Origin: Chlorobiota bacterium
GTDB taxonomy: Bacteria; Bacteroidota; Ignavibacteria; Kapaibacteriales; NICIL-2
Assembly: GCA_044228685.1 (NCBI GenBank)
Contig: JBGAUL010000011.1
Location: forward strand, 13,886-77,885
DNA length: 64,000 nucleotides
Direction: 5' to 3'
In this document: in pieces, positions 12,862 through 59,772 of the stretch
How the letters are laid out: each line of letters opens with the position of its first letter
Numbering within the stretch: position 1 is the stretch's first letter
Made by a program: the position numbers and the translations under genes
Notes under the pieces: generated by a model
The model's input: only the letters and a program-made list of their open reading frames with translations
What the model was told of the DNA's origin: nothing
Database searches by the model: none

Positions 12862-14253
12862 GTGAATCCTCCTTCTCTTCTCGGTCATAGCGCTCAATTA
12901 CTCCGCATCATTCGCAAGTCGCCACAACCGGCAGATGTTCTGACCTCGGGCTATATGCGCGACCATAAGTACATCGGTGCTTCCGATCGCCGCTTCGTGT
13001 CCGCGATGGTTTTTATGTGTCAGCGACTACTCGGCAGCCTGGACATCATCACAGAAGAAATTTTACGCAGCGATACTCGCTTTAGCGGCGTTGAAATCAA
13101 TCACTTGCAAGTCGCCTCGGCGGCTGTTTTGCACACTGATTTGGGACACAGTGCCTTTCATTCAGAATCGTCGCGCACTGCAGAGCAAAACAGCAAGCTC
13201 AGTGAATTTGTTGCTGAATTCCTTGTGCAGCGATGTTCCCTCGACCCTGAAGTTGCCAAGGGTTTTATCTCCGTCGCCGAGCAGAGTTTGGAGCGTATTC
13301 TGGGAAGAAATGATGATGTATCTCAGGTCTGTCGGCACGCAATGCCGCTGTGGATCATCAAAGCACTTGGACGTATCTACGATGAGTCCACGGTTTTGTC
13401 TCTATGTCGAAGCTTCCTACAGCCTGCGCCACTCTTTCTTCGCGTCAATACTCTGCAAATCAGTCGTGATGAGGTATTGCGTCGACTGTCGGACAACGGC
13501 ATTGCCGCCGAGGCCGGTCGTTATTCTCCTTACGCTATTTGTATCCACGAGCGAACCCAATTGACACAGACGGAGCTCTACGCGAGTGGAGCGATTGAGG
13601 TTCAGGATGAGGGATCGCAAATCGTCAGTTTGGCTCTTGATGTTCACGAACATGCTTCAGTGCTCGATGCATGCGCCGGTGCCGGTGGTAAGAGTTTGCA
13701 CATTGCAGTTCTTCAGCACGACAACGGTCGTATCGTGGCATCTGATCGTGAACCCAAGCGTATGCGTGAATTGCAGCAACGTGCTTCGAAAGCAGGACTG
13801 AAGTCTATCGAGCTAAAGGCTTTGGCTTCTGCAGATCCGCCCGCTAATCCTCGTCAATTGTTTGATTATGTCTTGATTGACGCACCCTGCAGTGGCATGG
13901 GAACGATCCGTCGTTCGCCTATGCTGAAATGGCGCTTAAGCGAAGATGCTCTGCGTCGTATAAACGAACGTCAATTTGAAATCATACAGCAGTATGCAGC
14001 TTGGTTGAAACCAGGCGGTGTTTTGGAATACTGCACCTGCTCTATTCTGCCGGAAGAGAATGAAGATATTGTGCGAAGATTCATGACAGCTCAACCAAGC
14101 TTTTCGGCCGATGCTGTTAAAGTGCATCTTAGCGCTCATCAATGCGAGATTCCTGAGCTGACGGACCAAGACTTCGAACTGCGTCTTGATCCTCTGCATC
14201 ACCAAAGTGATGGCTTTTATATTGCGCGATTACTCAAGAACGCTGAAGAATGA
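12862..14253 (+). CDS. rsmB: 16S rRNA m5C methyltransferase, NOL1/NOP2/Sun family (RsmB-like)
   Basis: SAM motifs DACAGAGGKS and DAPCSGMGTIRR, with an N-terminal NusB-like region. Confidence 0.8.
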   Translation: MNPPSLLGHSAQLLRIIRKSPQPADVLTSGYMRDHKYIGASDRRFVSAMVFMCQRLLGSLDIITEEILRSDTRFSGVEINHLQVASAAVLHTDLGHSAFHSESSRTAEQNSKLSEFVAEFLVQRCSLDPEVAKGFISVAEQSLERILGRNDDVSQVCRHAMPLWIIKALGRIYDESTVLSLCRSFLQPAPLFLRVNTLQISRDEVLRRLSDNGIAAEAGRYSPYAICIHERTQLTQTELYASGAIEVQDEGSQIVSLALDVHEHASVLDACAGAGGKSLHIAVLQHDNGRIVASDREPKRMRELQQRASKAGLKSIELKALASADPPANPRQLFDYVLIDAPCSGMGTIRRSPMLKWRLSEDALRRINERQFEIIQQYAAWLKPGGVLEYCTCSILPEENEDIVRRFMTAQPSFSADAVKVHLSAHQCEIPELTDQDFELRLDPLHHQSDGFYIARLLKNAEE

Positions 14254-32128: not shown

Positions 32129-32261
32129 TACATCTCCTCCCTGTGTCATAAGACCGTCGCCGAGCAACCGTCCTCACTCTCTACTAATCCACTTATGCAC
32201 TCATGCATTGACTTCGTGCGCTCCATTCTCGAGTGCGTAGACATTGTGTAAGCAACGACAT

Positions 32262-32300
32262 TTAAAAACAAAAGCCAATCGTGTGATTGGCTTTTGAATA
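32262..32300. terminator. Bidirectional rho-independent terminator between convergent genes
   Basis: Perfect 11-bp inverted repeat aaaagccaatc-gtgt-gattggctttt (32270-32295), flanked by an A-run upstream and a T-run downstream. It gives a U-tract on both strands, stronger on the minus strand. Confidence 0.6.
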
Positions 32301-32332
32301 GATCGATGGTGTGCTGGAGCACAGCGTAGTTC

Positions 32333-33997
32333 TTACCAGCGACGACGCTTTGGTGGTTGATCGTTGCCATATCCAAAGGAATTGCCGTCGCGACGATTTC
32401 CTTCATTGGGGTTTGGGCGACCGAAGTTGCGGTTTGGACGAGGTCCGCGATTGAATCCCGGACGCTTGTTGTAACCATTACCTTCACGCATTGCGTTTTG
32501 GTCGAAGCGTGAATAGTTTGCTCCTTCACGATTACCAAAGTTCTCGCGACGATCGTAGCTCTCGTCGTAGAAGCTGTTTGTGCTTTCTGCTTGATTGGTA
32601 GCCGGTTGTTGCTCTTCACGAATTGCATTTGGTGGTGCTTCACGATCATCGCGGAAGCCCGGACGATAGCGACCATTATTGCGATTGTTTCTGTAACCGT
32701 TGTTGTTTGAGCGACGATTGTTGCCTTGGTTATCCTGACGATTGTTGCCGTGTGAACGGTAGCCTCCGCCATTGTTTGGTGGAACGCCTTCAGCGCGAGG
32801 TCCATCGTAGCGTGGTTGCTCCGGACGTGGTGCATCGCCATCGCGAGGAGGACGATCGCCGTTTTGGAATCGACGGTTGTTGTTGTTGTTATTATTATCC
32901 CAGCGACGCTTGTTGTTCCAACGACGTGGGCCATTATTGTTCCAGCCTCCGCCGCGTTCACGATAGCCATCACGACCACCATGTTCGCGTTGCGGTTCGC
33001 GTTGTTCTTCACCTGCTTCGCCGCCTTCGAACATTTGCTCAGCATCGCCTAAAACACTGACCGGCTCATAATCATCGATGCTAATTGGACGTGGTGCATC
33101 GTCATCGGATTCCGGAACCGGAATGGCTGTAACGACTTCTTCCAGCGGATCAGCGTCGGTAGATGCACGGATCAAACGTCGAACTGCAGGACGCTGTTGT
33201 TGCTCTGTTGAGTCTTCTTCTCTCTGTGCGCTCTGCTCCTGTGTTGCAGTGCTAGCTTGAACACGTTGCTCAGCATAGACTTCGACATCATCAAACACTT
33301 CAGAAGAACCTTCAATGACGATTACGTATTCGCCGCGGAATTTGTGCTCTTCAAAATGGGCTTCCAATTGCTTCAATGAACCGTATTGATGTGCCTCCGA
33401 ACTCATGGTGAGGTTGCAACCAACATAGGCTTGACGATCCGGCATTACTTCAGCGAGAGCAGCGAGTATGGTCTTGAGACGATATGGTGTATCCATCAAG
33501 ACAATTGTTCTATTCTCACGAGCAAGCTTGCGGATCTCGCGATCACGCTCTTCGTTTTTGCGGCTCAGAAAACCTGCATAGATGAACTGACGTGTATTAA
33601 AAGTGCTACGTACGAGTGCGGTGAGCACGCTCGATGCACCGGGTAATACGCGCACATCAATGTTGTACTTAACAGCAGCTTTGACCAGGATATCACCTGG
33701 ATCTGCCAACAGTGGTGTACCTGCATCGCTGATGAGCGCAAGTTTCTTTCCTGCTGTTAAGAGCTTCATGCATTCGACGCTTGATTCAGTGTCATTGTGC
33801 TCATTAAGCTCAATAATCTCCTTCTCCATGTCGTAGTGCTTTAACAAGCGAATCGCCTCTTTTGACTCTTCGCAAACGACAACGTCTGATTCTTTGAGTG
33901 CTTCAAGCGCTCTCAGCGTAATGTCGCTATAGTTGCCGATCGGCGTCGCAACGACCGATAATGTTCCGGCTGCCTTGGGTGTGGCAGATTTTTTCAT
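32333..33997 (-). CDS. rsmI: 16S rRNA 2'-O-methyltransferase RsmI fused to a long C-terminal low-complexity (acidic then RG/N/Y-rich) tail
   Basis: N-terminal roughly 230 aa GTLSVVATPIGNYSDITLRALEALKESDVVVCEE...LISDAGTPLLADPG (tetrapyrrole-methylase fold, RsmI signature). A further roughly 320 aa are rich in D/E, then R, G, N, Y (RRWNNKRRWDNNNNNNNRRF...GYRNNRNNGRYRPGF). Confidence 0.8.
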   Translation of the reverse strand: MKKSATPKAAGTLSVVATPIGNYSDITLRALEALKESDVVVCEESKEAIRLLKHYDMEKEIIELNEHNDTESSVECMKLLTAGKKLALISDAGTPLLADPGDILVKAAVKYNIDVRVLPGASSVLTALVRSTFNTRQFIYAGFLSRKNEERDREIRKLARENRTIVLMDTPYRLKTILAALAEVMPDRQAYVGCNLTMSSEAHQYGSLKQLEAHFEEHKFRGEYVIVIEGSSEVFDDVEVYAEQRVQASTATQEQSAQREEDSTEQQQRPAVRRLIRASTDADPLEEVVTAIPVPESDDDAPRPISIDDYEPVSVLGDAEQMFEGGEAGEEQREPQREHGGRDGYRERGGGWNNNGPRRWNNKRRWDNNNNNNNRRFQNGDRPPRDGDAPRPEQPRYDGPRAEGVPPNNGGGYRSHGNNRQDNQGNNRRSNNNGYRNNRNNGRYRPGFRDDREAPPNAIREEQQPATNQAESTNSFYDESYDRRENFGNREGANYSRFDQNAMREGNGYNKRPGFNRGPRPNRNFGRPNPNEGNRRDGNSFGYGNDQPPKRRRW

Positions 33998-35079
33998 ATA
34001 AAAACTGTGAGGTATATGTGTGTGGATGTATTAATCTTTTTGTCTGTTGTTGTAGCTGCTACAGTACCAAAGCTTAGTGAATACGGTACAGCTTCACCTA
34101 TTATTCTTCTTCTCTTCACCCTTTTTGAGTATTGACCTTGAAAGTTGCTTCTCAAAATTCTTGACTTGCGATTCCAATCATGACTATTCTAATTCTTTCC
34201 GAAGCGGTCACATGCGCTGCTTAAACCGGCTCTGACTTTTTTGAAGTGCCTCTCTGTTCCAGCGTCTGCTAGTTTGGTCTAGTCTCAGCTAGTCTTTACT
34301 GCACCTTGCAATGCATGCTTTCTGGATTTCATTAGCATCACTCATGATCACTCATGGAAGCCTTTACAGATTCCCGATGCTACCGTCAATTGATTCTGCA
34401 CTCTCCGTGTGCTGACTTTTGTGTGGATAATCACACCCTATTTTCTTCTCTACACTGAAGCCAATGGCAATTGTTACCGTGTACTATCTAGTACCGAATC
34501 GTCGTCATTTCTAGCTGTTCATGCCCTTAATGAAGTCAGATTCTGACCAACGATGTGCTTAGCTATCCGAGGTGGAAAGCGGTAGATTACCCCTTGAACT
34601 TCGAGAACTAACTACGAACTGCAAACTTGGAAATGAGCGTGTGACTCATCAGTCCAACGCTGTCAATTCATTTGAGCGAATTGAAGCTCCTTCACCTTCC
34701 ATTATCAAACCTACAGTGCTGCTGTCTGAGGCATGGAAGTCCGCCGTTCATGTTGTACATCTTGTATCAACCTTCCGGCACTGAGAGACAGATCAAAGTT
34801 ACAACATCAAACTACAATCTCCAACAAAAACACGATGTTGTTTGTTCGGTTACAAATCGGAGTTTATTAACTCAATACCTCATTGACCAATTTCATCACT
34901 ACATCAGTATCAGCTATGAGAGCATCCTCTTCTCAACATGTACTCGGGTTGTCACGAATAAAATCTATCGACGAGGACTAGGCAGGTACTTGGTGATTCT
35001 CGTGGTGTCGGCGTTATGAAAGATTCAGACTTTCAGCTCAACGCGCTGCATTTCTGTTGCAATATACGAATAAGGGAGC

Positions 35080-35120
35080 TTAGAAAAACGAACAGCCATC
35101 CGAGAGACGGATGGCTGTTG
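35080..35120 (-). terminator. Rho-independent terminator downstream of the thioredoxin-like gene
   Basis: Perfect 12-bp stem aacagccatccg / cggatggctgtt with loop agaga (35091-35119). On the minus transcript it is followed by CGUUUUUCU. Confidence 0.6.
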
Positions 35121-35145
35121 AAAATATTTGCTGTTGGTGTGAGAC

Positions 35146-35787
35146 TTACTTCTTTGCCCACTTGATACTACAACCTACTGCCTTAACAAAATCTGGACTC
35201 GGCATGCTTCCCTTGTTCAGCGACGAGATAGCGTTTGCAACATAGTGTTCCTTTGCTGCCTTTTCGTCGTCTGCATTGTCGTCGATAGCTCCGATGTAGC
35301 GAACAACGAATGAGTTACCGCTTTTCTGAACAAGAAAGACGTGTGGTGTACGTGTTGCACCGAATGCCTTTGCTACATCTTGACTTGGATCGATGAGATA
35401 TGGGAAAGGAAAACCCTTGTCATGTGCACGTGTAATCATGTTGCCCCATGAATCCTCAGGAACAGTCGTTGTGTCATTTGGATTGATTGCAATAACAGGA
35501 TAACCGGCTTCCGCATATGTCTTGTGAAGCGCGATAATACGGTCTTCGTATGCCTTTGCATAAGGACAGTGATTGCATGTAAAGACAATGATGTATCCCT
35601 TAACGTTTGGATTGCTATTGAGCGAAACCATGCGTCCGTCGATGTTCTTCAAGTTAAAATCTTGAACGACGTCTCCGACCTTATAACCACCTGCCATTGC
35701 GTGAACAGTGGCAAGTACAAGTACCAAGACTACTGCAATTTTATTCTTCATGTCGTGAATTGAATGATGATGAAACAAGCTTCTCAA
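35146..35787 (-). CDS. Thioredoxin-fold protein (TlpA/redoxin-like, CxxC)
   Basis: CNHC active-site motif in IIVFTCNHCPYAK. The probable true start is the internal MKNKIAVVLVLVLATVHA signal peptide (about 35751). Confidence 0.65.
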   Translation of the reverse strand: MRSLFHHHSIHDMKNKIAVVLVLVLATVHAMAGGYKVGDVVQDFNLKNIDGRMVSLNSNPNVKGYIIVFTCNHCPYAKAYEDRIIALHKTYAEAGYPVIAINPNDTTTVPEDSWGNMITRAHDKGFPFPYLIDPSQDVAKAFGATRTPHVFLVQKSGNSFVVRYIGAIDDNADDEKAAKEHYVANAISSLNKGSMPSPDFVKAVGCSIKWAKK

Positions 35788-36322
35788 GTTCTGTTTGGGT
35801 CAGTTCACCCTCGTGAAAGATACGAAAGTGCGCTGCGTTGTTGATGATAAGGGTCGCGGGTATCGAGCCGGACCATTCTTTACTGACGGAATCGATCCAG
35901 TCTGAGACCTTATGGTCTGAAAATAGAACCACTTGCGGCCGTATATGCTTGGCAGCGACGAAGCTGCGGAGCTTGGATTGTAAGTCTTTGACAAAATCTA
36001 AACTGACAAGCACTACTCTCACCTTCTGTGAACTTTTGGCCAGACTACTATCAAAAGCCAGAAAAGCGGGCATCTCCTCGACACATGGCTTACACCAGGT
36101 TGCCCAGAAATTTATCACATAGGTCGTATCACTCTGTTTCTGTAGCAATTGCTTGTTCAACATGGCAAAATCCCACTGCTCAATGTGATCGGCAGAACTT
36201 TGAGCTTTGGTTGAAACCATGAGTGATAGAAGCGTCATGACGACAAGTGACCATCGCAAAGCATCGCGAAAATGCTCTGAGGATGCGCCAATGAATTTGA
36301 AGCGGGTATTTTGCATGTTCAC
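35741..36322 (-). CDS. Thiol:disulfide oxidoreductase, TlpA/ResA-like
   Basis: WATWCKPC active-site motif and a signal peptide, 193 aa. Confidence 0.7.
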   Translation of the reverse strand: MNMQNTRFKFIGASSEHFRDALRWSLVVMTLLSLMVSTKAQSSADHIEQWDFAMLNKQLLQKQSDTTYVINFWATWCKPCVEEMPAFLAFDSSLAKSSQKVRVVLVSLDFVKDLQSKLRSFVAAKHIRPQVVLFSDHKVSDWIDSVSKEWSGSIPATLIINNAAHFRIFHEGELTQTELEKLVSSSFNSRHEE

Positions 36323-50913: not shown

Positions 50914-51015
50914 AATTCTCCTAAGACTACGCTATACTACGATAGAATTACGGTCATGTGCAACAAAACATTTTTTCGCGCGCTCCAGCTCCTCTATTTT
51001 CGTACATCGTTTAGT

Positions 51016-51173
51016 AAAGGTGCTTCACTGTATAGCTGAAGAGAATAGGGAATCCCGTTAAATCCGGGAACGGTTGCGCCGCCGTGAAGGTTGACAAACT
51101 GTCACTAAATCCACTGCTTTATTGCGGGAAGGACGACAGTGCGAATGAAACCTGAGTCGGAAGACCTGCCTTT
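51016..51173 (+). promoter_or_regulatory. Cobalamin (AdoCbl) riboswitch
   Basis: GAATAGGGAATCCCGTTAAATCCGGGAACGGTTGCGCCGCCGTGAAGG matches the conserved core (AGGGAA..GGTG.AATCC..GC.G..CCCGCCACUG-like). The B12 box AGTCGGAAGACCTGCC is at 51154-51170. Candidate P1 is AAAGG(51016-20)/CCTTT(51169-73). The downstream leader has hairpins and a T9 run before the ATG at 51322. Confidence 0.8.
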
Positions 51174-51321
51174 GCTACTCATCGTGTCCACATGGACTGC
51201 ACTGCGCCAACAGTGCGATGAGGAAACTTCTTCGTTGTGCACTGCGGTCCTCGCAGCACCTTCTAGTCGTTTCCCCTTTCTTTTTTTCGTCGTCCGGCAG
51301 ACGGCACAACTACATTCTAAT

Positions 51322-52419
51322 ATGCGTATTTCTTTTGCGTCACTCGTGCGAGTGTTGCTTGTCGTATCCTGTCTTGTCGGACTCTATAGCTGCACCGACA
51401 CCATAGCACCGGCCGGCACCGGCAGTACTGTCGCCGACTCATCGGTCATTGTTGTTAATCAAGGGGGTTATCAACAGGACAACTCATCTCTTAGTCGAAT
51501 CCTCCGTCGTAGCGATTCTGTGGATCGTAGCTGGTTCTCTAGTGCCAATTCCGGACGAAAGCTCGGAGCAAATGCAAACAACATGCTCATCGTCGGTGAC
51601 ACCGCCTTCATTAGCGTTACCGGTTCTCATACCATCGAGGTTATCAATGTTCGTACCGGTACTCTTGTCAAAACACTGCACCTCGATAACGACGAACAAC
51701 CATGGGTTTTCACACAAGTCAATAGCAGCCTCGCAGCCGTCTCAACAAATAACGCCGATGGCTTGCGCTTGTTTAATCCTAAAACACTGGAGCTTCTGGA
51801 ACGCGTCACAACAGGACCTGCAACACAAGGCATCGCCGCGACTGCCTCTTCGATCTTCGTTGCCAACTCCGGTGCGGGAAGTCTTCGAGATACTGCTGCA
51901 GGCGCCGGCACGATTAGCGTCGTTGACGCGGTGAGTCGTATGACAACGCACCAAATCAACTGCGGCAAGAACGTCACAGAACTTATTTGCAGCGACGATG
52001 CAAAACGTGTTTACGCCTTTGTATCTGAGCTGTGGCCAAGTAAGAAACAACAAGTTGTTGAATATGATGCCGTGAGTTTTCTTGAACGACGTCGCTGGAC
52101 TTTTACAGCTTTGGGATTCATGAACTACTATCAGAACGCAGTGTACGTTTTGGCAAAAGTTGATTCCAACGATGCTGCTTGGAGTGTGCTACGTATTGAT
52201 GTCTCACAGAGCTCCCCAACGCCAACTGCCCTCTTCACTCTTCCCGCGAGCTTTATGCCGAATGGGATGAATATTCGTCGCAGCGATGGAACATTTTGGA
52301 TCTGCGACGCCGTTGATTTCGCCAGCAATGGCTTTGTCTCGGTCATGGATGCACGTGGCACCCAACTCAAGCGCTTCGGCGTTGGTTTAAACCCAGGCAA
52401 CATTTGCTTTTTCCATTGA
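51322..52419 (+). CDS. Surface lipoprotein with YVTN/YncE-type beta-propeller repeats, BtuG-like candidate
   Basis: Lipoprotein signal MRISFASLVRVLLVVSCLVGLYSCTD, and repeats of the type FVANSGAGSL...ISVVD. The longer ORF from 51139 would run through the riboswitch, so 51322 is the supported start. Immediately upstream of the TonB-dependent receptor. Confidence 0.55.
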   Translation: MRISFASLVRVLLVVSCLVGLYSCTDTIAPAGTGSTVADSSVIVVNQGGYQQDNSSLSRILRRSDSVDRSWFSSANSGRKLGANANNMLIVGDTAFISVTGSHTIEVINVRTGTLVKTLHLDNDEQPWVFTQVNSSLAAVSTNNADGLRLFNPKTLELLERVTTGPATQGIAATASSIFVANSGAGSLRDTAAGAGTISVVDAVSRMTTHQINCGKNVTELICSDDAKRVYAFVSELWPSKKQQVVEYDAVSFLERRRWTFTALGFMNYYQNAVYVLAKVDSNDAAWSVLRIDVSQSSPTPTALFTLPASFMPNGMNIRRSDGTFWICDAVDFASNGFVSVMDARGTQLKRFGVGLNPGNICFFH

Positions 52420-57477: not shown

Positions 57478-57483
57478 GAGCGA

Positions 57484-59772
57484 TTAGTCTCTGTTAAGTA
57501 GCATGATCCGGTTAATGTGGGACTCAGGAATCACAAGACCATAGATTCCCATCGAAAGCTGTGAGCACGCTCGTCGTAAGTTCTCCGCCTTCCCACTCCA
57601 ACGACATTCGCCATCCAGAGCATAGATGTACAATTGACTTTGAGCATACAAAGACGTGAGAGCAAGAGCTTGCTCTAGGGTCAAGATTTGTGTGATCTTT
57701 TCTGATCGCTCATCGTTTCCTACATCATTGATTGTCTCATTCTGGTAGATGCCATAGTAGAGTCCGCTCGTATCCCCAACGGCATAGATGTAATTGTCAC
57801 GAAAAGCTATTCTTCGAACATTCAATTCCTGCAGACCGAAGTTTTCTACGGACCAGTGAATTCCCGCATCGCTGCTGATATAGATTCCATCATGTTTGGT
57901 CCCAATCACACACAGTTCAGCCTTTGCTGCAATACATTGAATCGTAATACTGTCCGGCAGATCTACTCGCTGCCAACTACGACCGCTGTCCGCAGACCGG
58001 TACAACGTATTTGCAAGGCTGTCGTACGCTAAAAGTATCCCTTTTGAACACAAAGTCAGACGCTTGAATTGGTGATTAGGAACATAGACTGAATCTACCT
58101 TTGCCGAAGTCGTCGATGTCATCAGAACTGCACATGCATTTGACGCGGGAATGGATGTGATCGCTGCAACTTGTTTTGATTGAATACTAAAGTCGTCGAT
58201 GGAATTGTCCGCAAAAGCCTTGCTCCAAGTAGCTGTAAAATCATCGCTGATGAATAGCTCTCCGCTTTGGGAATGTAGATAGGCTCTGCCACTGAGGTAG
58301 TCAATCCTCTTCCATTGTGCGTTCGAGGGCAAGGATGGGACTAATTGAGGAAACCAGGAAAGACCGGCGTCGTCGCTGTACGCCAGCTCAGGTCCCTCTC
58401 CACAGCTAATCAATCGACCTTCCACAAAGGCAGCATCATTAACCACCGTCTGCGGCAGCGTCACAGGCAACCACTCATCCATTGAGCGCAAACGCTTTAC
58501 AACATCTCGTCGGTGCGAGATAAAGTCGGTTATGCTACTTGTCGCTAGAATTGAAATTTGAACCGAAACTGGAAGTGCACAAAGATCTAAGACATCCGGA
58601 GTTTTGAGTTTTATGTCATTGACATGACCCTCCGGAGTCACAGCGACGATGTCATTTCGATAAGCGATGGCATAGGTGGCTGTGAACCAATTACCCTGCG
58701 GCAATTTCCATGTATCTCCCAAGTCTGTGCTATACCAAATCCTTGAGGAGTTATCACTCGTATTGGTTCCTTTGACTACACAAAGAGTTGACCAGTCATA
58801 GGTCGACTTAATCTCTGTGTTAGGCGCGACTTGATCAGGACTAATGTTATACCATTTGTTCGTACCACTATCACTTCTTAACAACAGACTGTCACCTGCA
58901 ATGATGATACGCGGCAATGAAACGTAAAGGAATTTGATCTTGGTGCCTGTAGGTGTTTCCCACTTTTTAACCCATGCGCTACCGGAACTTGATCTCTGCC
59001 AAATGAATCCATCGCTGATACAATACAAATCACTTTGACTAGTAGAAATGCAATCGATGTCTTTTTCGGTTGGAGTGGCGGTCGTTGACCAGGAATGCTC
59101 CGTTGCATTCCAAAAGAACAGTGTATGTGAATCTGCAAGAAGGACTATGGTACTGTTCCAAGTGAGGAGCTTTCGTGCGTGGTTATAGCTTAACGAGGAA
59201 CTTGTCCAGTTTTGGGCGCCATCAAGAGACTCCAGCACGATTCCATTTTCGAGAGCGAGTACATAGTGTTTGTCATCCACAACAAAGGTCTCGATGCGAC
59301 CAGCCCTAACACTATCGTGAAGTACTCTCCAACCACCACCGTTAATATGACTTCGAGAGAACACGTGATCGGAAACGCTATAGACGAAGTCTTGATCAAC
59401 TTGTGTTGCTCTCACGGGCTGCGCTAAGGGATTCTGTGGTTGCGACCAATGGATGTGTTGACTGTGAAGTGAGTTCGGGAAGAGAAGGATCATCGCAATA
59501 TTGGCGACGAAGCACAAACGACAAAGGGCAGTCGTAAAACGACGCCCTTTGCTACAGTTAAGAATGTGCTTTACGCGCTCAGTGTTATCAGCGCAAGATG
59601 ACAAAGCGAGTCTGTAGTGGAGTTGCTGAGGGACGTTGCACCAAACACTCGTACACGCCTTCTGCACATTGATCCACATTAAAATGAGCTTCTGATTCAT
59701 GGAATTCAATATCGCGAATGAATTGCTCACCGCGAGCATTAAACAACTGTATGCGATAATGTCCATCGGCAA
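57484..59772 (-). CDS. BNR/Asp-box repeat beta-propeller secreted protein (paralog-like of 43622..45676), possible degenerate T9SS CTD
   Basis: Repeats STDLGDTW, YSDDAGLSW, SDDFTATW, SADSGRSW, SSDAGIHW. The 5' roughly 185 nt of the listed ORF overlap the upstream gene, so the real start is probably internal (about 59493-59580) near the hydrophobic ALCRLCFVANIAMILLF. C-terminus ...LYIYALDGECRWSGK...SMGIYGLVIPES is weakly CTD-like. Confidence 0.5.
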   Translation of the reverse strand: MPMDIIAYSCLMLAVSNSFAILNSMNQKLILMWINVQKACTSVWCNVPQQLHYRLALSSCADNTERVKHILNCSKGRRFTTALCRLCFVANIAMILLFPNSLHSQHIHWSQPQNPLAQPVRATQVDQDFVYSVSDHVFSRSHINGGGWRVLHDSVRAGRIETFVVDDKHYVLALENGIVLESLDGAQNWTSSSLSYNHARKLLTWNSTIVLLADSHTLFFWNATEHSWSTTATPTEKDIDCISTSQSDLYCISDGFIWQRSSSGSAWVKKWETPTGTKIKFLYVSLPRIIIAGDSLLLRSDSGTNKWYNISPDQVAPNTEIKSTYDWSTLCVVKGTNTSDNSSRIWYSTDLGDTWKLPQGNWFTATYAIAYRNDIVAVTPEGHVNDIKLKTPDVLDLCALPVSVQISILATSSITDFISHRRDVVKRLRSMDEWLPVTLPQTVVNDAAFVEGRLISCGEGPELAYSDDAGLSWFPQLVPSLPSNAQWKRIDYLSGRAYLHSQSGELFISDDFTATWSKAFADNSIDDFSIQSKQVAAITSIPASNACAVLMTSTTSAKVDSVYVPNHQFKRLTLCSKGILLAYDSLANTLYRSADSGRSWQRVDLPDSITIQCIAAKAELCVIGTKHDGIYISSDAGIHWSVENFGLQELNVRRIAFRDNYIYAVGDTSGLYYGIYQNETINDVGNDERSEKITQILTLEQALALTSLYAQSQLYIYALDGECRWSGKAENLRRACSQLSMGIYGLVIPESHINRIMLLNRD

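Follow-up and report, generated by a model that had tools for sequence, protein, structure and literature searches.

Background

Promoters of the Bacteroidota and Chlorobi carry a -7-type box, which is TAnnTTTG for sigma-A or the variant TAnnTTGY. RpoD promoters of the Chlorobi, as described for Chlorobaculum tepidum, are similar to TTG-N17-23-TAnnTTTG (bioRxiv 10.1101/172254), and in Flavobacterium psychrophilum a TAnnTTGY box (motif SM5) occupies positions -12 to -5 (PMC9723704). The 5' UTRs of the Bacteroidota are short, with a median of 24-32 nt, and long or structured leaders are also on record, including 64 structured 5' regions in F. psychrophilum (PMC9723704). Among leader RNAs, riboswitches and T-boxes are conserved in sequence. 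In compact genomes, RNA genes such as those of the non-coding families collected in Rfam usually show themselves as intergenic stretches that lack ORFs.

Here we analyse a 64,000-nt stretch of the genome of a Kapaibacteria-like Chlorobiota bacterium (the window), in which the rRNA methyltransferase gene rsmI is separated from the upstream gene trx2 by a long spacer at 33998-35145. Most likely this spacer consists of the trx2 terminator, a conserved promoter and then about 1 kb of fast-evolving, untranslated rsmI leader. It resembles the structured leaders of the Bacteroidota in extending, as non-coding sequence, from a promoter to a housekeeping gene, in being apparently constrained within a lineage, and in having a 5'-proximal hairpin in some relatives, but it is far longer and has no conserved aptamer-like fold, attenuator terminator or conserved leader peptide. 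Unlike riboswitches and T-boxes, the rsmI leader differs in sequence between lineages. The spacer shares with the Rfam families its ORF-free position in a compact genome, whereas neither the window nor its relatives yield a family match there even at E values up to 10. It is a modest curiosity, and no new kind or class of element is indicated.

The spacer between trx2 and rsmI

A preliminary description of the window, made from the sequence without database searches, had singled out 33998-35145 as an ORF-free region in an otherwise compact gene arrangement. The gap is real: it measures 1148 bp and shows no coding signal in any frame. All other gaps in a greedy ORF map are 226 bp or shorter, and an apparent second gap at 57478-59587 is occupied by a 762-aa ORF, which leaves 33998-35145 as the single outlier. 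The minus strand of the gap has no ORF of 60 aa or more (the longest are 53, 42, 28 and 27 aa) and the plus strand has two, of 70 aa (34572-34784) and 115 aa (34672-35019), as had been counted before. Both flanking genes are read from the minus strand (Table 1). The called start of trx2 is M13 in a 213-aa ORF, and its exact protein is recorded with PF00578/PF08534. RsmI combines a TP_methylase domain at its N-terminus with a C-terminal tail of low complexity, about 315 aa long. The GC content of the spacer is slightly lower than that of the flanking genes. CTAG is not avoided in it, occurring at 5.2/kb as compared with 0.93/kb in coding sequence, and contigs assembled from the same sequencing run break within it at 34696-34744. 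Run SRR28480385 contains the organism.

Table 1. Features of the trx2-rsmI region, in window coordinates
Feature	Position	Strand	Remarks
rsmI, 16S rRNA C1402 2'-O-methyltransferase	32333..33997	-	ORF
Block adjoining the rsmI ATG	33998..34040	-	Partly conserved with L092 and L083
Putative 5' untranslated rsmI leader, ~1057 nt, non-coding	33998..35054	-	From box position, no terminator, no coding signal
Three CTAGTYT units, 10-nt period	34268..34295	.	Sense strand AGACTAG/AAACTAG
Tandem ATCACTCATG x2	34337..34356	.	Repeat scan
Palindrome GTGTGGATAATCACAC	34421..34436	.	Holds DnaA box TTATCCACA
Segment with above-chance predicted stability, four sense-strand hairpins	34615..34790	-	z = -3.15
115-aa ORF, 89-aa version called in source record, judged non-gene	34672..35019	+	Orphan, dicodon score ~0
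Second extra TAnnTTTG box, TAGGTTTG	34706..34713	-	Not conserved in relatives
Extra TAnnTTTG box TAACTTTG, possible internal promoter	34794..34801	-	Not conserved in relatives
AGAAATGCAG, also present in L092	35046..35055	-	Directly 3' of box; spans the putative transcription start
Conserved -7-type box TATATTGCA (TAnnTTGY class), putative rsmI promoter	35058..35066	-	Points at rsmI
trx2 intrinsic terminator	35081..35119	-	12-bp stem 35119-35091, 5-nt loop, then T-run
trx2, AhpC/TSA-Redoxin thioredoxin-fold, 201 aa	35146..35751	-	Upstream flanking gene

The terminator that had been reported at 35091-35119 on the minus strand was confirmed. The hairpin, 26 nt past the trx2 stop codon, is G+C-rich (7 of its 12 pairs are G-C) and runs into the T-run CGTTTTTCTA, as is characteristic of an intrinsic terminator. 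An equivalent hairpin and T-run stand just upstream of the conserved box described below in three relatives, L083, L096 and L097.

A conserved candidate promoter box upstream of rsmI

About 15 nt past the T-run of the trx2 terminator lies the octamer TATATTGC (35066-35059, minus strand), which reads in the rsmI sense and fits TAnnTTGY exactly. The octamer occurs once on the rsmI-sense strand of every spacer compared, and never on the antisense strand. Its extension TATATTGCA is the only 9-mer common to the spacers of the window, L092 and L083 (p ~0.007 by shuffling), and the exact 9-mer is unique within the window. Among the spacers compared, TATATTGC is the only TAnnTTTG/TAnnTTGY box, save for two boxes found in the window alone, 716-804 nt upstream of the rsmI ATG, and a second box in L093 and L095. 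All of these boxes are at least 289 nt from the rsmI ATG, and in the window none is nearer than 716 nt. The second box of L093, TAGATTGCA, is 207 nt upstream of the conserved one; in L094 it is broken by a SNP, and the conserved box is unaffected. In two more distant relatives with ftsY as the neighbouring gene, L084 and L085, the octamer stands at -146 and -118 of rsmI, and the set of relatives that have the box despite a different upstream neighbour comprises L084 and L085/L087. Since the octamer is kept where ftsY replaces trx2, the box belongs to rsmI and travels with it; it is a gene-oriented TAnnTTGY box that is maintained upstream of rsmI across the Kapaibacteria.

Similar boxes elsewhere in the window agree with the short 5' UTRs of the phylum. 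Of its 18 TAnnTTTG sites, seven precede a start codon by about 25-40 nt, the start codon being that of a listed ORF in five cases and a nearer in-frame ATG in two. The sequence TATTTTGCA is found upstream of queA in both the window and L092, and the sole other exact copy of TATATTGC in the window precedes the ORF start at 14250 by 32 nt. The rsmI box, in contrast, is about 1069 nt from its start codon, compared with about 30 nt for boxes elsewhere in the window.

The upstream TTG (-33) element of such promoters is weakly conserved. At the distance of 17-23 nt before the box, the window has no TTG and its relatives have no clear one, their TTG spacings being irregular; in this respect the rsmI box differs from the described Bacteroidota and Chlorobi promoters. 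By analogy with the position of the box in F. psychrophilum, transcription would start at about 35054 on the minus strand. The window and L092 share the arrangement TATATTGCA-A-(C/T)-AGAAATGCAG around this point. The octamer TATATTGC offers a conserved promoter box candidate for a group that is without promoter data, and, if it is indeed a promoter, a change from TATATTGC to TCTATTGC would be expected to abolish expression.

A proposed long leader

A long 5' leader for rsmI was among the options that the preliminary description had raised, and it is the one that we favour, given a conserved box at the far end of the spacer, no terminator between box and gene, and signs of constraint in a closely related pair of genomes (see below). 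On balance, we read the spacer as the trx2 terminator, an rsmI promoter and a non-coding 5' leader of about 1057 nt. Transcription of trx2 would end at the intrinsic terminator (35119-35081), a new transcript would begin under the direction of the TATATTGCA box, and RNA polymerase would read through the leader into rsmI. Between lineages the leader would turn over quickly, through substitution and slipped-strand duplication, with the box and the terminator-then-promoter layout being kept; within a lineage it would be held by purifying selection. The proposed length follows from the absence of intrinsic terminators between box and rsmI: none was found on the sense strand in the window, L093 or L097, and L092 has one weak site.

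A leader of 1 kb is an extreme claim, because the median for the Bacteroidota is so much shorter. The window's leader would be 1.7-10 times longer than that of any relative, and much of it could be unconstrained filler. As not every gene in the window has a recognisable box, rsmI may also have a proximal promoter that escapes recognition. If the long leader is real, then in an uncultured branch of the Bacteroidota/Chlorobi group a housekeeping gene for rRNA modification has a leader 10-40 times as long as is usual in the phylum, kept in all relatives examined and rewritten in each lineage. It would then lend itself to studies of how long 5' UTRs originate in bacteria, lengthen by slippage and remain functional.

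Relatives and evidence of constraint

The order trx2, spacer, rsmI was found in seven syntenic relatives belonging to three further lineages, with spacers of 406-934 bp that contain no credible gene. As compared with 1148 bp in the window, the spacer measures 862 bp in L092; 905, 929 and 934 bp in L093, L094 and L098; and about 409, 432 and 406 bp in L083, L096 and L097. For closer relatives, a GTDB genome scan with trx2 gave a best match of 61% identity, with rsmI in none of the 80 loci fetched, and a JGI metagenome scan with RsmI found nothing close. Near-identical strains differ within the spacer in tandem-repeat copy number and by a 33-nt duplication polymorphism. Between lineages the spacers cannot be aligned, save at the box, and nhmmer searches between the spacer groups gave a sole match, of L092 to L096, around the box. 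The preliminary description had considered that the region might show no conservation. This is half true: its sequence is not conserved between lineages, whereas the presence of a spacer, its box and its layout are.

Divergence within a lineage could be compared for L093 and L098. Third codon positions of trx2 and rsmI are 6.7% diverged (29/436) and the spacer upstream of the box is 8.4% diverged (25/297), as against 2.2% (11/494) for the spacer downstream of the box (Fisher p = 0.001 versus third positions and 1.3e-4 versus the upstream part). Because divergence downstream of the box falls below both proxies, the comparison points to purifying selection on the putatively transcribed part in this lineage. 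The test covers one close pair from a lineage other than the window's, with 11 versus 25-29 substitutions, and since divergence is heterogeneous along the L093/L098 locus, a short recombination tract could mimic constraint. Constraint of this kind within a lineage makes it probable that the leader carries lineage-specific cis-regulatory information for rsmI, such as signals for RNA stability, processing or protein binding.

RNA structure

A novel structured ncRNA had also been suggested for the gap, in which no tRNA or tmRNA had been recognised by eye, and an Rfam search had been recommended. The gap indeed holds neither a tRNA nor a tmRNA. Searched with Rfam 15, the window gave no family match at gathering thresholds, its spacer gave two chance-level snoRNA hits and nothing else when E was relaxed to 10, and the spacers of L083, L092, L093, L096, L097 and L098 gave none; no known aptamer or leader model (riboswitch, T-box, attenuator) was matched. 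Neither an attenuator terminator nor a leader peptide was found, the leader having no sense terminator and the mini-ORFs after the box not being conserved. Folding z-scores are near zero throughout the spacer except in one stable segment of 160 nt (z -3.15; none of 200 shuffles was as stable), for which a 201-nt extension gives z = -1.75. A single-sequence covariance model of this segment (34615-34790) detected no homologue in related loci totalling about 1 Mb, nor in L083, L089 or L092, and a model of the 5' region of L083 and L096 had no match in the window, L092 or L093 spacers. In L083, L096 and L097, a hairpin about 15-35 nt into the predicted transcript keeps its pairing through G-U-compatible changes on the sense strand. 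This hairpin and one further stem show a few compatible or compensatory changes among three sequences, one of them noisy. Evidence for RNA structure in the spacer is weak, and with one stable segment and no structure common to the relatives, the structured ncRNA is not supported in the form in which it was proposed. Among the marks of a stand-alone RNA gene, a promoter box is present, a terminator is absent, and above-chance stability is seen in the one segment.

Alternative explanations

It is possible, if unlikely, that the box drives a separate, lineage-specific ncRNA gene of about 150-500 nt and that rsmI is transcribed from an unrecognised proximal promoter of its own. The pattern in L083, L096 and L097, in which conservation extends about 170 nt from the box, taking in the 5' hairpin and a U-rich tract, and then decays, would suit such a gene, as would the constraint on some 500 nt after the box in L093 and L098 and the stable segment in the window; the partly conserved 40 nt or so before the rsmI ATG could hold the proximal promoter. 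However, the window, L093 and L097 lack a sense-strand terminator at which this gene would end, no lineage has a TAnnTTTG/TAnnTTGY box within 289 nt of the rsmI ATG, and the short distance from box to rsmI in L084 and L085 (118-146 nt) leaves little room for a separate gene. The absence of Rfam matches from all spacers, the failure of both covariance models to find anything in the spacers of other lineages, and folding z-scores that are mostly near zero also speak against it. A related view, to which we give a similarly low but real chance, is that the 0.3-1 kb between TATATTGC and rsmI is a functional regulatory RNA specific to this clade of the Kapaibacteria, constrained within lineages and almost completely replaced between them. 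Relying on features outside current RNA-family models, such an RNA could adjust how much of a ribosome-maturation enzyme is made, or it could act in trans. The spacer, its terminator and promoter apart, may instead be functionless filler, either neutral sequence expanded by slippage and duplication or an old decayed insertion, the extra DNA being tolerated because of its location in a leader. Spacer lengths that range from 406 to 1148 bp, the failure of alignment between lineages, the polymorphisms among near-identical strains, the short tandem and periodic repeats of the window, the slightly low GC content, the frequent CTAG sites and the contig breaks are all in keeping with filler. We nevertheless think it rather improbable: in L093 and L098 divergence downstream of the box is three to four times lower than at the neutral proxies, at least 289 nt are kept between box and rsmI in all lineages examined although the genome is otherwise compact, and even the distant relatives keep 106-134 nt, against the phylum median of 24-32 nt.

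Two protein-based readings had been offered as well, small-protein genes of fewer than 60 aa and a decayed gene, and neither was supported. One or more small proteins might be suspected from the 89-aa ORF called in the source record, from a 22-codon ORF that starts 40 nt past the TAACTTTG box, and from hydrophobic ORFs of 42-52 aa on the T-rich plus strand, but we consider this very improbable. A dicodon model trained on 32 window genes scored no frame as positive in the spacers of the window or L093 (all frames were at or below zero), and each lineage has different mini-ORFs after the box. The 115-aa ORF, the longest in the spacer, is an orphan, matching itself and one repetitive sequence (E = 2e-4) among 1.84 billion representative proteins. 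When six-frame pieces of the spacers were compared all against all, no conserved peptide was found, nothing common to spacers of different lineages and no counterpart of this ORF. That the spacer is a decayed protein gene or the remnant of a mobile element is likewise highly doubtful. A plus-strand frame at 34647-34736 resembles the trx2 C-terminus (a single pairwise comparison gave 10/30 identities and E = 0.002), and 34037-34057 and 34797-34817, separated by 739 nt, form imperfect inverted repeats. A decayed thioredoxin paralogue was rejected, however, as the weak BLASTP match found no support from the thioredoxin family HMM, which detected nothing in six frames, or from a frameshift-tolerant profile alignment, which stood at chance (10 of 80 shuffles were as good) and had a best segment that was not colinear with the BLASTP match. 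Six-frame pieces of the spacer had no Pfam, NCBIfam or PHROGs match, and there is neither residual similarity to a protein family nor an intact orthologue in place, as a pseudogene would show. The preliminary description had reasoned that relatives might have a protein-coding gene here, of which the window's copy had decayed; the relatives have no intact conserved gene, and one isolated 66-aa antisense call, on the noisy L083 contig, has no counterpart. As for a mobile element or MITE, the 21-nt inverted repeats do not exceed chance (14 of 40 shuffles), no second copy exists in the window, and blastn gave no plasmid or phage match.

Small repeats and palindrome

The palindrome GTGTGGATAATCACAC, noted previously near 34420, is present at 34421-34436, and on its minus strand, at 34430-34422, TTATCCACA is the only perfect DnaA-box consensus in the window. 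The spacer is also ORF-free, slightly AT-richer than its surroundings and supplied with short repeats, features that could bring a chromosomal replication origin to mind. This is effectively refuted, as the perfect box does not belong to a cluster (one DnaA box at up to one mismatch, and five at up to two mismatches versus 3.4 expected), cumulative GC skew continues monotonically through the spacer, and gene orientation does not switch. The other small repeats that had been described exist in the window. The tandem ATCACTCATG pair was found at 34337-34356 rather than at 34343-34362. Three CTAGTYT units, which had been placed near 34270-34300, are spaced 10 nt apart at about 34268-34295, and they supply half of the spacer's six CTAG sites.

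An ORF-free spacer between trx2 and rsmI

The spacer at 33998-35145 was originally described as an ORF-free region in an otherwise compact gene arrangement, and an ORF map of the whole window bears this out. All of its minus-strand ORFs are shorter than 60 aa, and two ORFs on its plus strand reach 70 and 115 aa. The remaining gaps are all 226 bp or less and a second apparent gap, at 57.5-59.6 kb, was rejected as it proved to be a 762-aa ORF; the spacer is therefore the sole large ORF-free stretch in the 64 kb. The terminator, small repeats and palindrome listed in the preliminary description are all present, some of the repeat and palindrome coordinates needing correction by up to 6 nt (see table).

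The tetranucleotide CTAG is strongly avoided across the window, but not in the spacer (0.93 per kb in coding sequence, 1.6 in other intergenic sequence and 5.2 in the spacer; 3.9 expected from base composition). Half of the spacer sites are contributed by three AGACTAG units spaced 10 nt apart. The sequence of the window is itself recorded in a 115-kb NCBI contig and in sequencing run SRR28480385. Two contigs assembled from that run match the window exactly, end at 34695 and resume at 34745, within the spacer; this break at 34696-34744 may come from a polymorphism among strains, a repeat or locally reduced coverage.

Features of the window and of syntenic loci in relatives (L numbers)
Feature	Position or length	Strand	Remark
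rsmI	32333-33997	-	TP_methylase domain; homologues named 16S rRNA C1402 2'-O-methyltransferase by several sources
trx2	35146-35751	-	AhpC/TSA-type thioredoxin-fold gene
trx2 terminator	35119-35091	-	
rsmI box	35066-35058	-	putative promoter element
Tandem 10-mer	34337-34356		in spacer
Palindrome	34421-34436		16 nt, in spacer
CTAGTYT units			three, 10-nt spacing, in spacer
Putative -7 boxes (TAnnTTTG or TAnnTTGY), examples	4768, 12812, 12831, 21277, 23638, 39492, 47785, 36307-36315, 14218-14226		~25-40 nt before start codons
3' part of rsmI (low-complexity tail), window	32333-33280	-	
Clade rsmI, L092	11487-13124		
Clade rsmI, L093	4852-6507		
Clade rsmI, L097	5022-6707		
Clade rsmI, L098	2516-4264		
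Spacer, L092	862 bp		
Spacers, L093 / L094 / L098	905 / 929 / 934 bp		
Spacers, L083 / L096 / L097	about 409 / 432 / 406 bp		
Spacer, L095			partial

Candidate functions of the spacer

The preliminary description suggested that the spacer might hold small-protein genes or a decayed gene; both now appear unlikely. Under a dicodon model trained on 32 window genes, both flanking genes score clearly positive and 34000-35125 scores zero or below in every frame, which argues against a protein-coding spacer. The 115-aa ORF is without a homologue among 1.84 billion representative proteins: it matches only itself, called as an 89-aa ORF in the source record, and a repetitive sequence (E = 2e-4). Nine six-frame pieces of the spacer found no match in Pfam, NCBIfam or PHROGs. 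One plus-strand frame faintly resembles the trx2 C-terminus, but a decayed thioredoxin paralogue was rejected, the family HMM finding nothing and a frameshift-tolerant profile alignment remaining within the range of shuffled sequences. A mobile element was likewise rejected: the spacer resembles no plasmid or phage, it is not repeated elsewhere in the window, and its best inverted repeats are at chance level.

The sole perfect instance of the DnaA-box consensus TTATCCACA in the 64 kb lies at 34430-34422 (-), inside the 16-nt palindrome. A replication origin is unlikely, since this box is isolated rather than part of a cluster, and the cumulative GC skew shows no turn at this site; the lone box could be a regulatory site on its own or a chance occurrence.

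A search of the spacer against Rfam 15, the check proposed at the outset, gave no match even at E up to 10, and ARAGORN found neither tRNA nor tmRNA, in agreement with the earlier inspection by eye. A strongly structured RNA is disfavored by predicted stability, which is unremarkable on both strands apart from the terminator of trx2 and a 160-nt stretch of the sense strand at 34620-34779 (z -3.15, or -1.75 when extended to 201 nt).

The spacer in relatives

Judged by its flanking proteins, the organism falls among Kapaibacteria-like members of the Bacteroidota/Chlorobi group. Species-level genome representatives and JGI metagenomes yielded no close relative that shares the gene order; syntenic relatives were found by looking up the contigs of protein matches. 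Their common order is queA, trx1, trx2, spacer, rsmI, DUF1232, DUF3098. Gene callers left these spacers empty, save for one isolated 66-aa antisense call on the noisy long-read contig of L083, without counterpart elsewhere. This lack of genes argues that a long ORF-free spacer 5' of rsmI is a stable feature of the clade and not an accident of one genome. By blastn, Smith-Waterman and nhmmer the spacers cannot be aligned between lineages, except for one short motif. Absence of conservation, which the preliminary description would have counted against a function, thus holds for most of the sequence, but the spacer and a box within it are kept.

A conserved putative promoter

The 9-mer TATATTGCA is the only one common to the spacers of the window, L092 and L083, a coincidence that arises in about 0.7% of shuffles; in the window and L092 the shared sequence is longer, TATATTGCA(A)(C/T)AGAAATGCAG. 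On the rsmI-sense strand every spacer contains exactly one TATATTGC. TAnnTTTG and TAnnTTGY octamers are absent from the antisense strand of every spacer, and none lies closer than 289 nt to the start of rsmI. In the window and in L083, L096 and L097, ~15 nt separate the box from the preceding T-run of the trx2 terminator. In distant Kapaibacteria, a divergent ftsY rather than trx2 precedes rsmI and the TATATTGC octamer is still present, at -146 and -118 relative to the start of rsmI, which argues that the box belongs to rsmI, not trx2.

The rsmI box fits the TAnnTTGY class of Flavobacterium psychrophilum, a promoter box at -12 to -5 mapped by transcription-start sequencing; the sigma-A box of that species is TAnnTTTG (PMC9723704). 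In Chlorobaculum tepidum, a green sulfur bacterium, the RpoD motif is similar to this consensus (bioRxiv 10.1101/172254). Of the 18 TAnnTTTG sites in the window, seven precede a start codon by ~25-40 nt; for five of them this is a listed ORF start, for the other two a nearer in-frame ATG. The only other exact TATATTGC of the window precedes the ORF start at 14250 by 32 nt, and TATTTTGCA is found upstream of queA in both the window and L092. Judging from these positions, such boxes evidently act as promoters in this organism, with 5' UTRs usually of ~20-30 nt, in agreement with medians of 24-32 nt for the phylum (PMC9723704). This suggests short 5' UTRs and a Bacteroidota-type promoter grammar in an uncultured Kapaibacteria-like organism.

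Length and constraint of the predicted leader

The position of the box implies an rsmI transcript start near 35054 and a leader of ~1057 nt; predicted leaders are ~290-625 nt in clade relatives and 106-134 nt in the distant relatives. A sense-strand scan from box to rsmI detected no terminator in the window, L093 or L097, and one weak site in L092. On balance we lean toward a reading in which the intrinsic terminator of trx2 would end the upstream transcript, the conserved box would serve as the rsmI promoter, and a very long, fast-evolving, repeat-prone non-coding leader would be transcribed through into rsmI. A long rsmI leader, one option of the preliminary description, is thus favored. A promoter with a long 5' UTR is a known arrangement; its length and mode of evolution here are unusual.

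One of the two main alternatives, a leader that is mostly neutral filler, seems rather improbable. Low constraint is what its four-fold range of length within the clade, its repeat variation, its ordinary folding and empty covariance searches point to. Near-identical strains carry 2, 3 and about 3.5 copies of a 25-27-nt tandem repeat (TAGCACAGTTACTCAGCACGATACT) located 35-130 nt before rsmI (L093 4746-4830, with equivalents in L094 and L098), and a 33-nt duplication between direct repeats TAGTTGATGCGC is polymorphic between L093 and L095 (spacer ~213-258). L093 and L098, alignable yet far enough apart for a divergence test, differ at 29/436 third codon positions of trx2 and the rsmI catalytic domain (6.7%). 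Spacer sequence upstream of the box cannot be distinguished from these positions (25/297, 8.4%), and the ~500 nt downstream of it are less diverged (11/494, 2.2%; Fisher p = 0.001 vs third positions, 1.3e-4 vs the upstream part). This segment has no coding signal in L093, and the difference is evidence for purifying selection on a presumably transcribed non-coding part, in the L093/L098 lineage only. On the favored reading, the leader probably contributes to cis-regulation in some lineage-specific way.

The other main alternative, and marginally the likelier one, is a distinct non-coding RNA gene under the control of the conserved box; it too seems rather improbable. In L083, L096 and L097 conservation spans the terminator, the box and then ~170 nt more, including a hairpin (GUUUCGG-GNAAG-CCGRRAC) whose variants still pair through sense-strand G-U. 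The constrained segment of L093 has ordinary folding z-scores on the sense strand, and covariance models built from the most stable segment of the window and from the L083/L096 5' region found nothing in the spacers of other lineages. The L083/L096 leader model gave a weak match at L092 13329-13407 (+) (17.6 bits, rough E = 0.001), in the rsmI-DUF1232 gap, which is probably spurious.

Other features

Third-position identity between L093 and L098 is 66-72% in the DUF1232 and DUF3098 genes downstream of rsmI and 93% in rsmI and trx2, which points to a possible recombination boundary close to the 3' end of rsmI in this lineage. RsmI of the clade is 545-582 aa long; most of the listed homologues have about 225-300 aa. 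A low-complexity tail of ~300 aa, in which N, R, G, D, E, P and Q abound, extends beyond the catalytic domain, and this tail has indels between close relatives (93 gap columns, L093 vs L098). A 299-aa ORF at 32146-33045 (-), in another frame over a repetitive stretch of rsmI, is probably spurious. The only Rfam match of the window at the gathering threshold is a cobalamin riboswitch (RF00174) at 51001-51187 (+), with 90.9 bits. It lies just upstream of, or overlaps, the listed start of ORF 51139-52419, the true start of which is probably further downstream.
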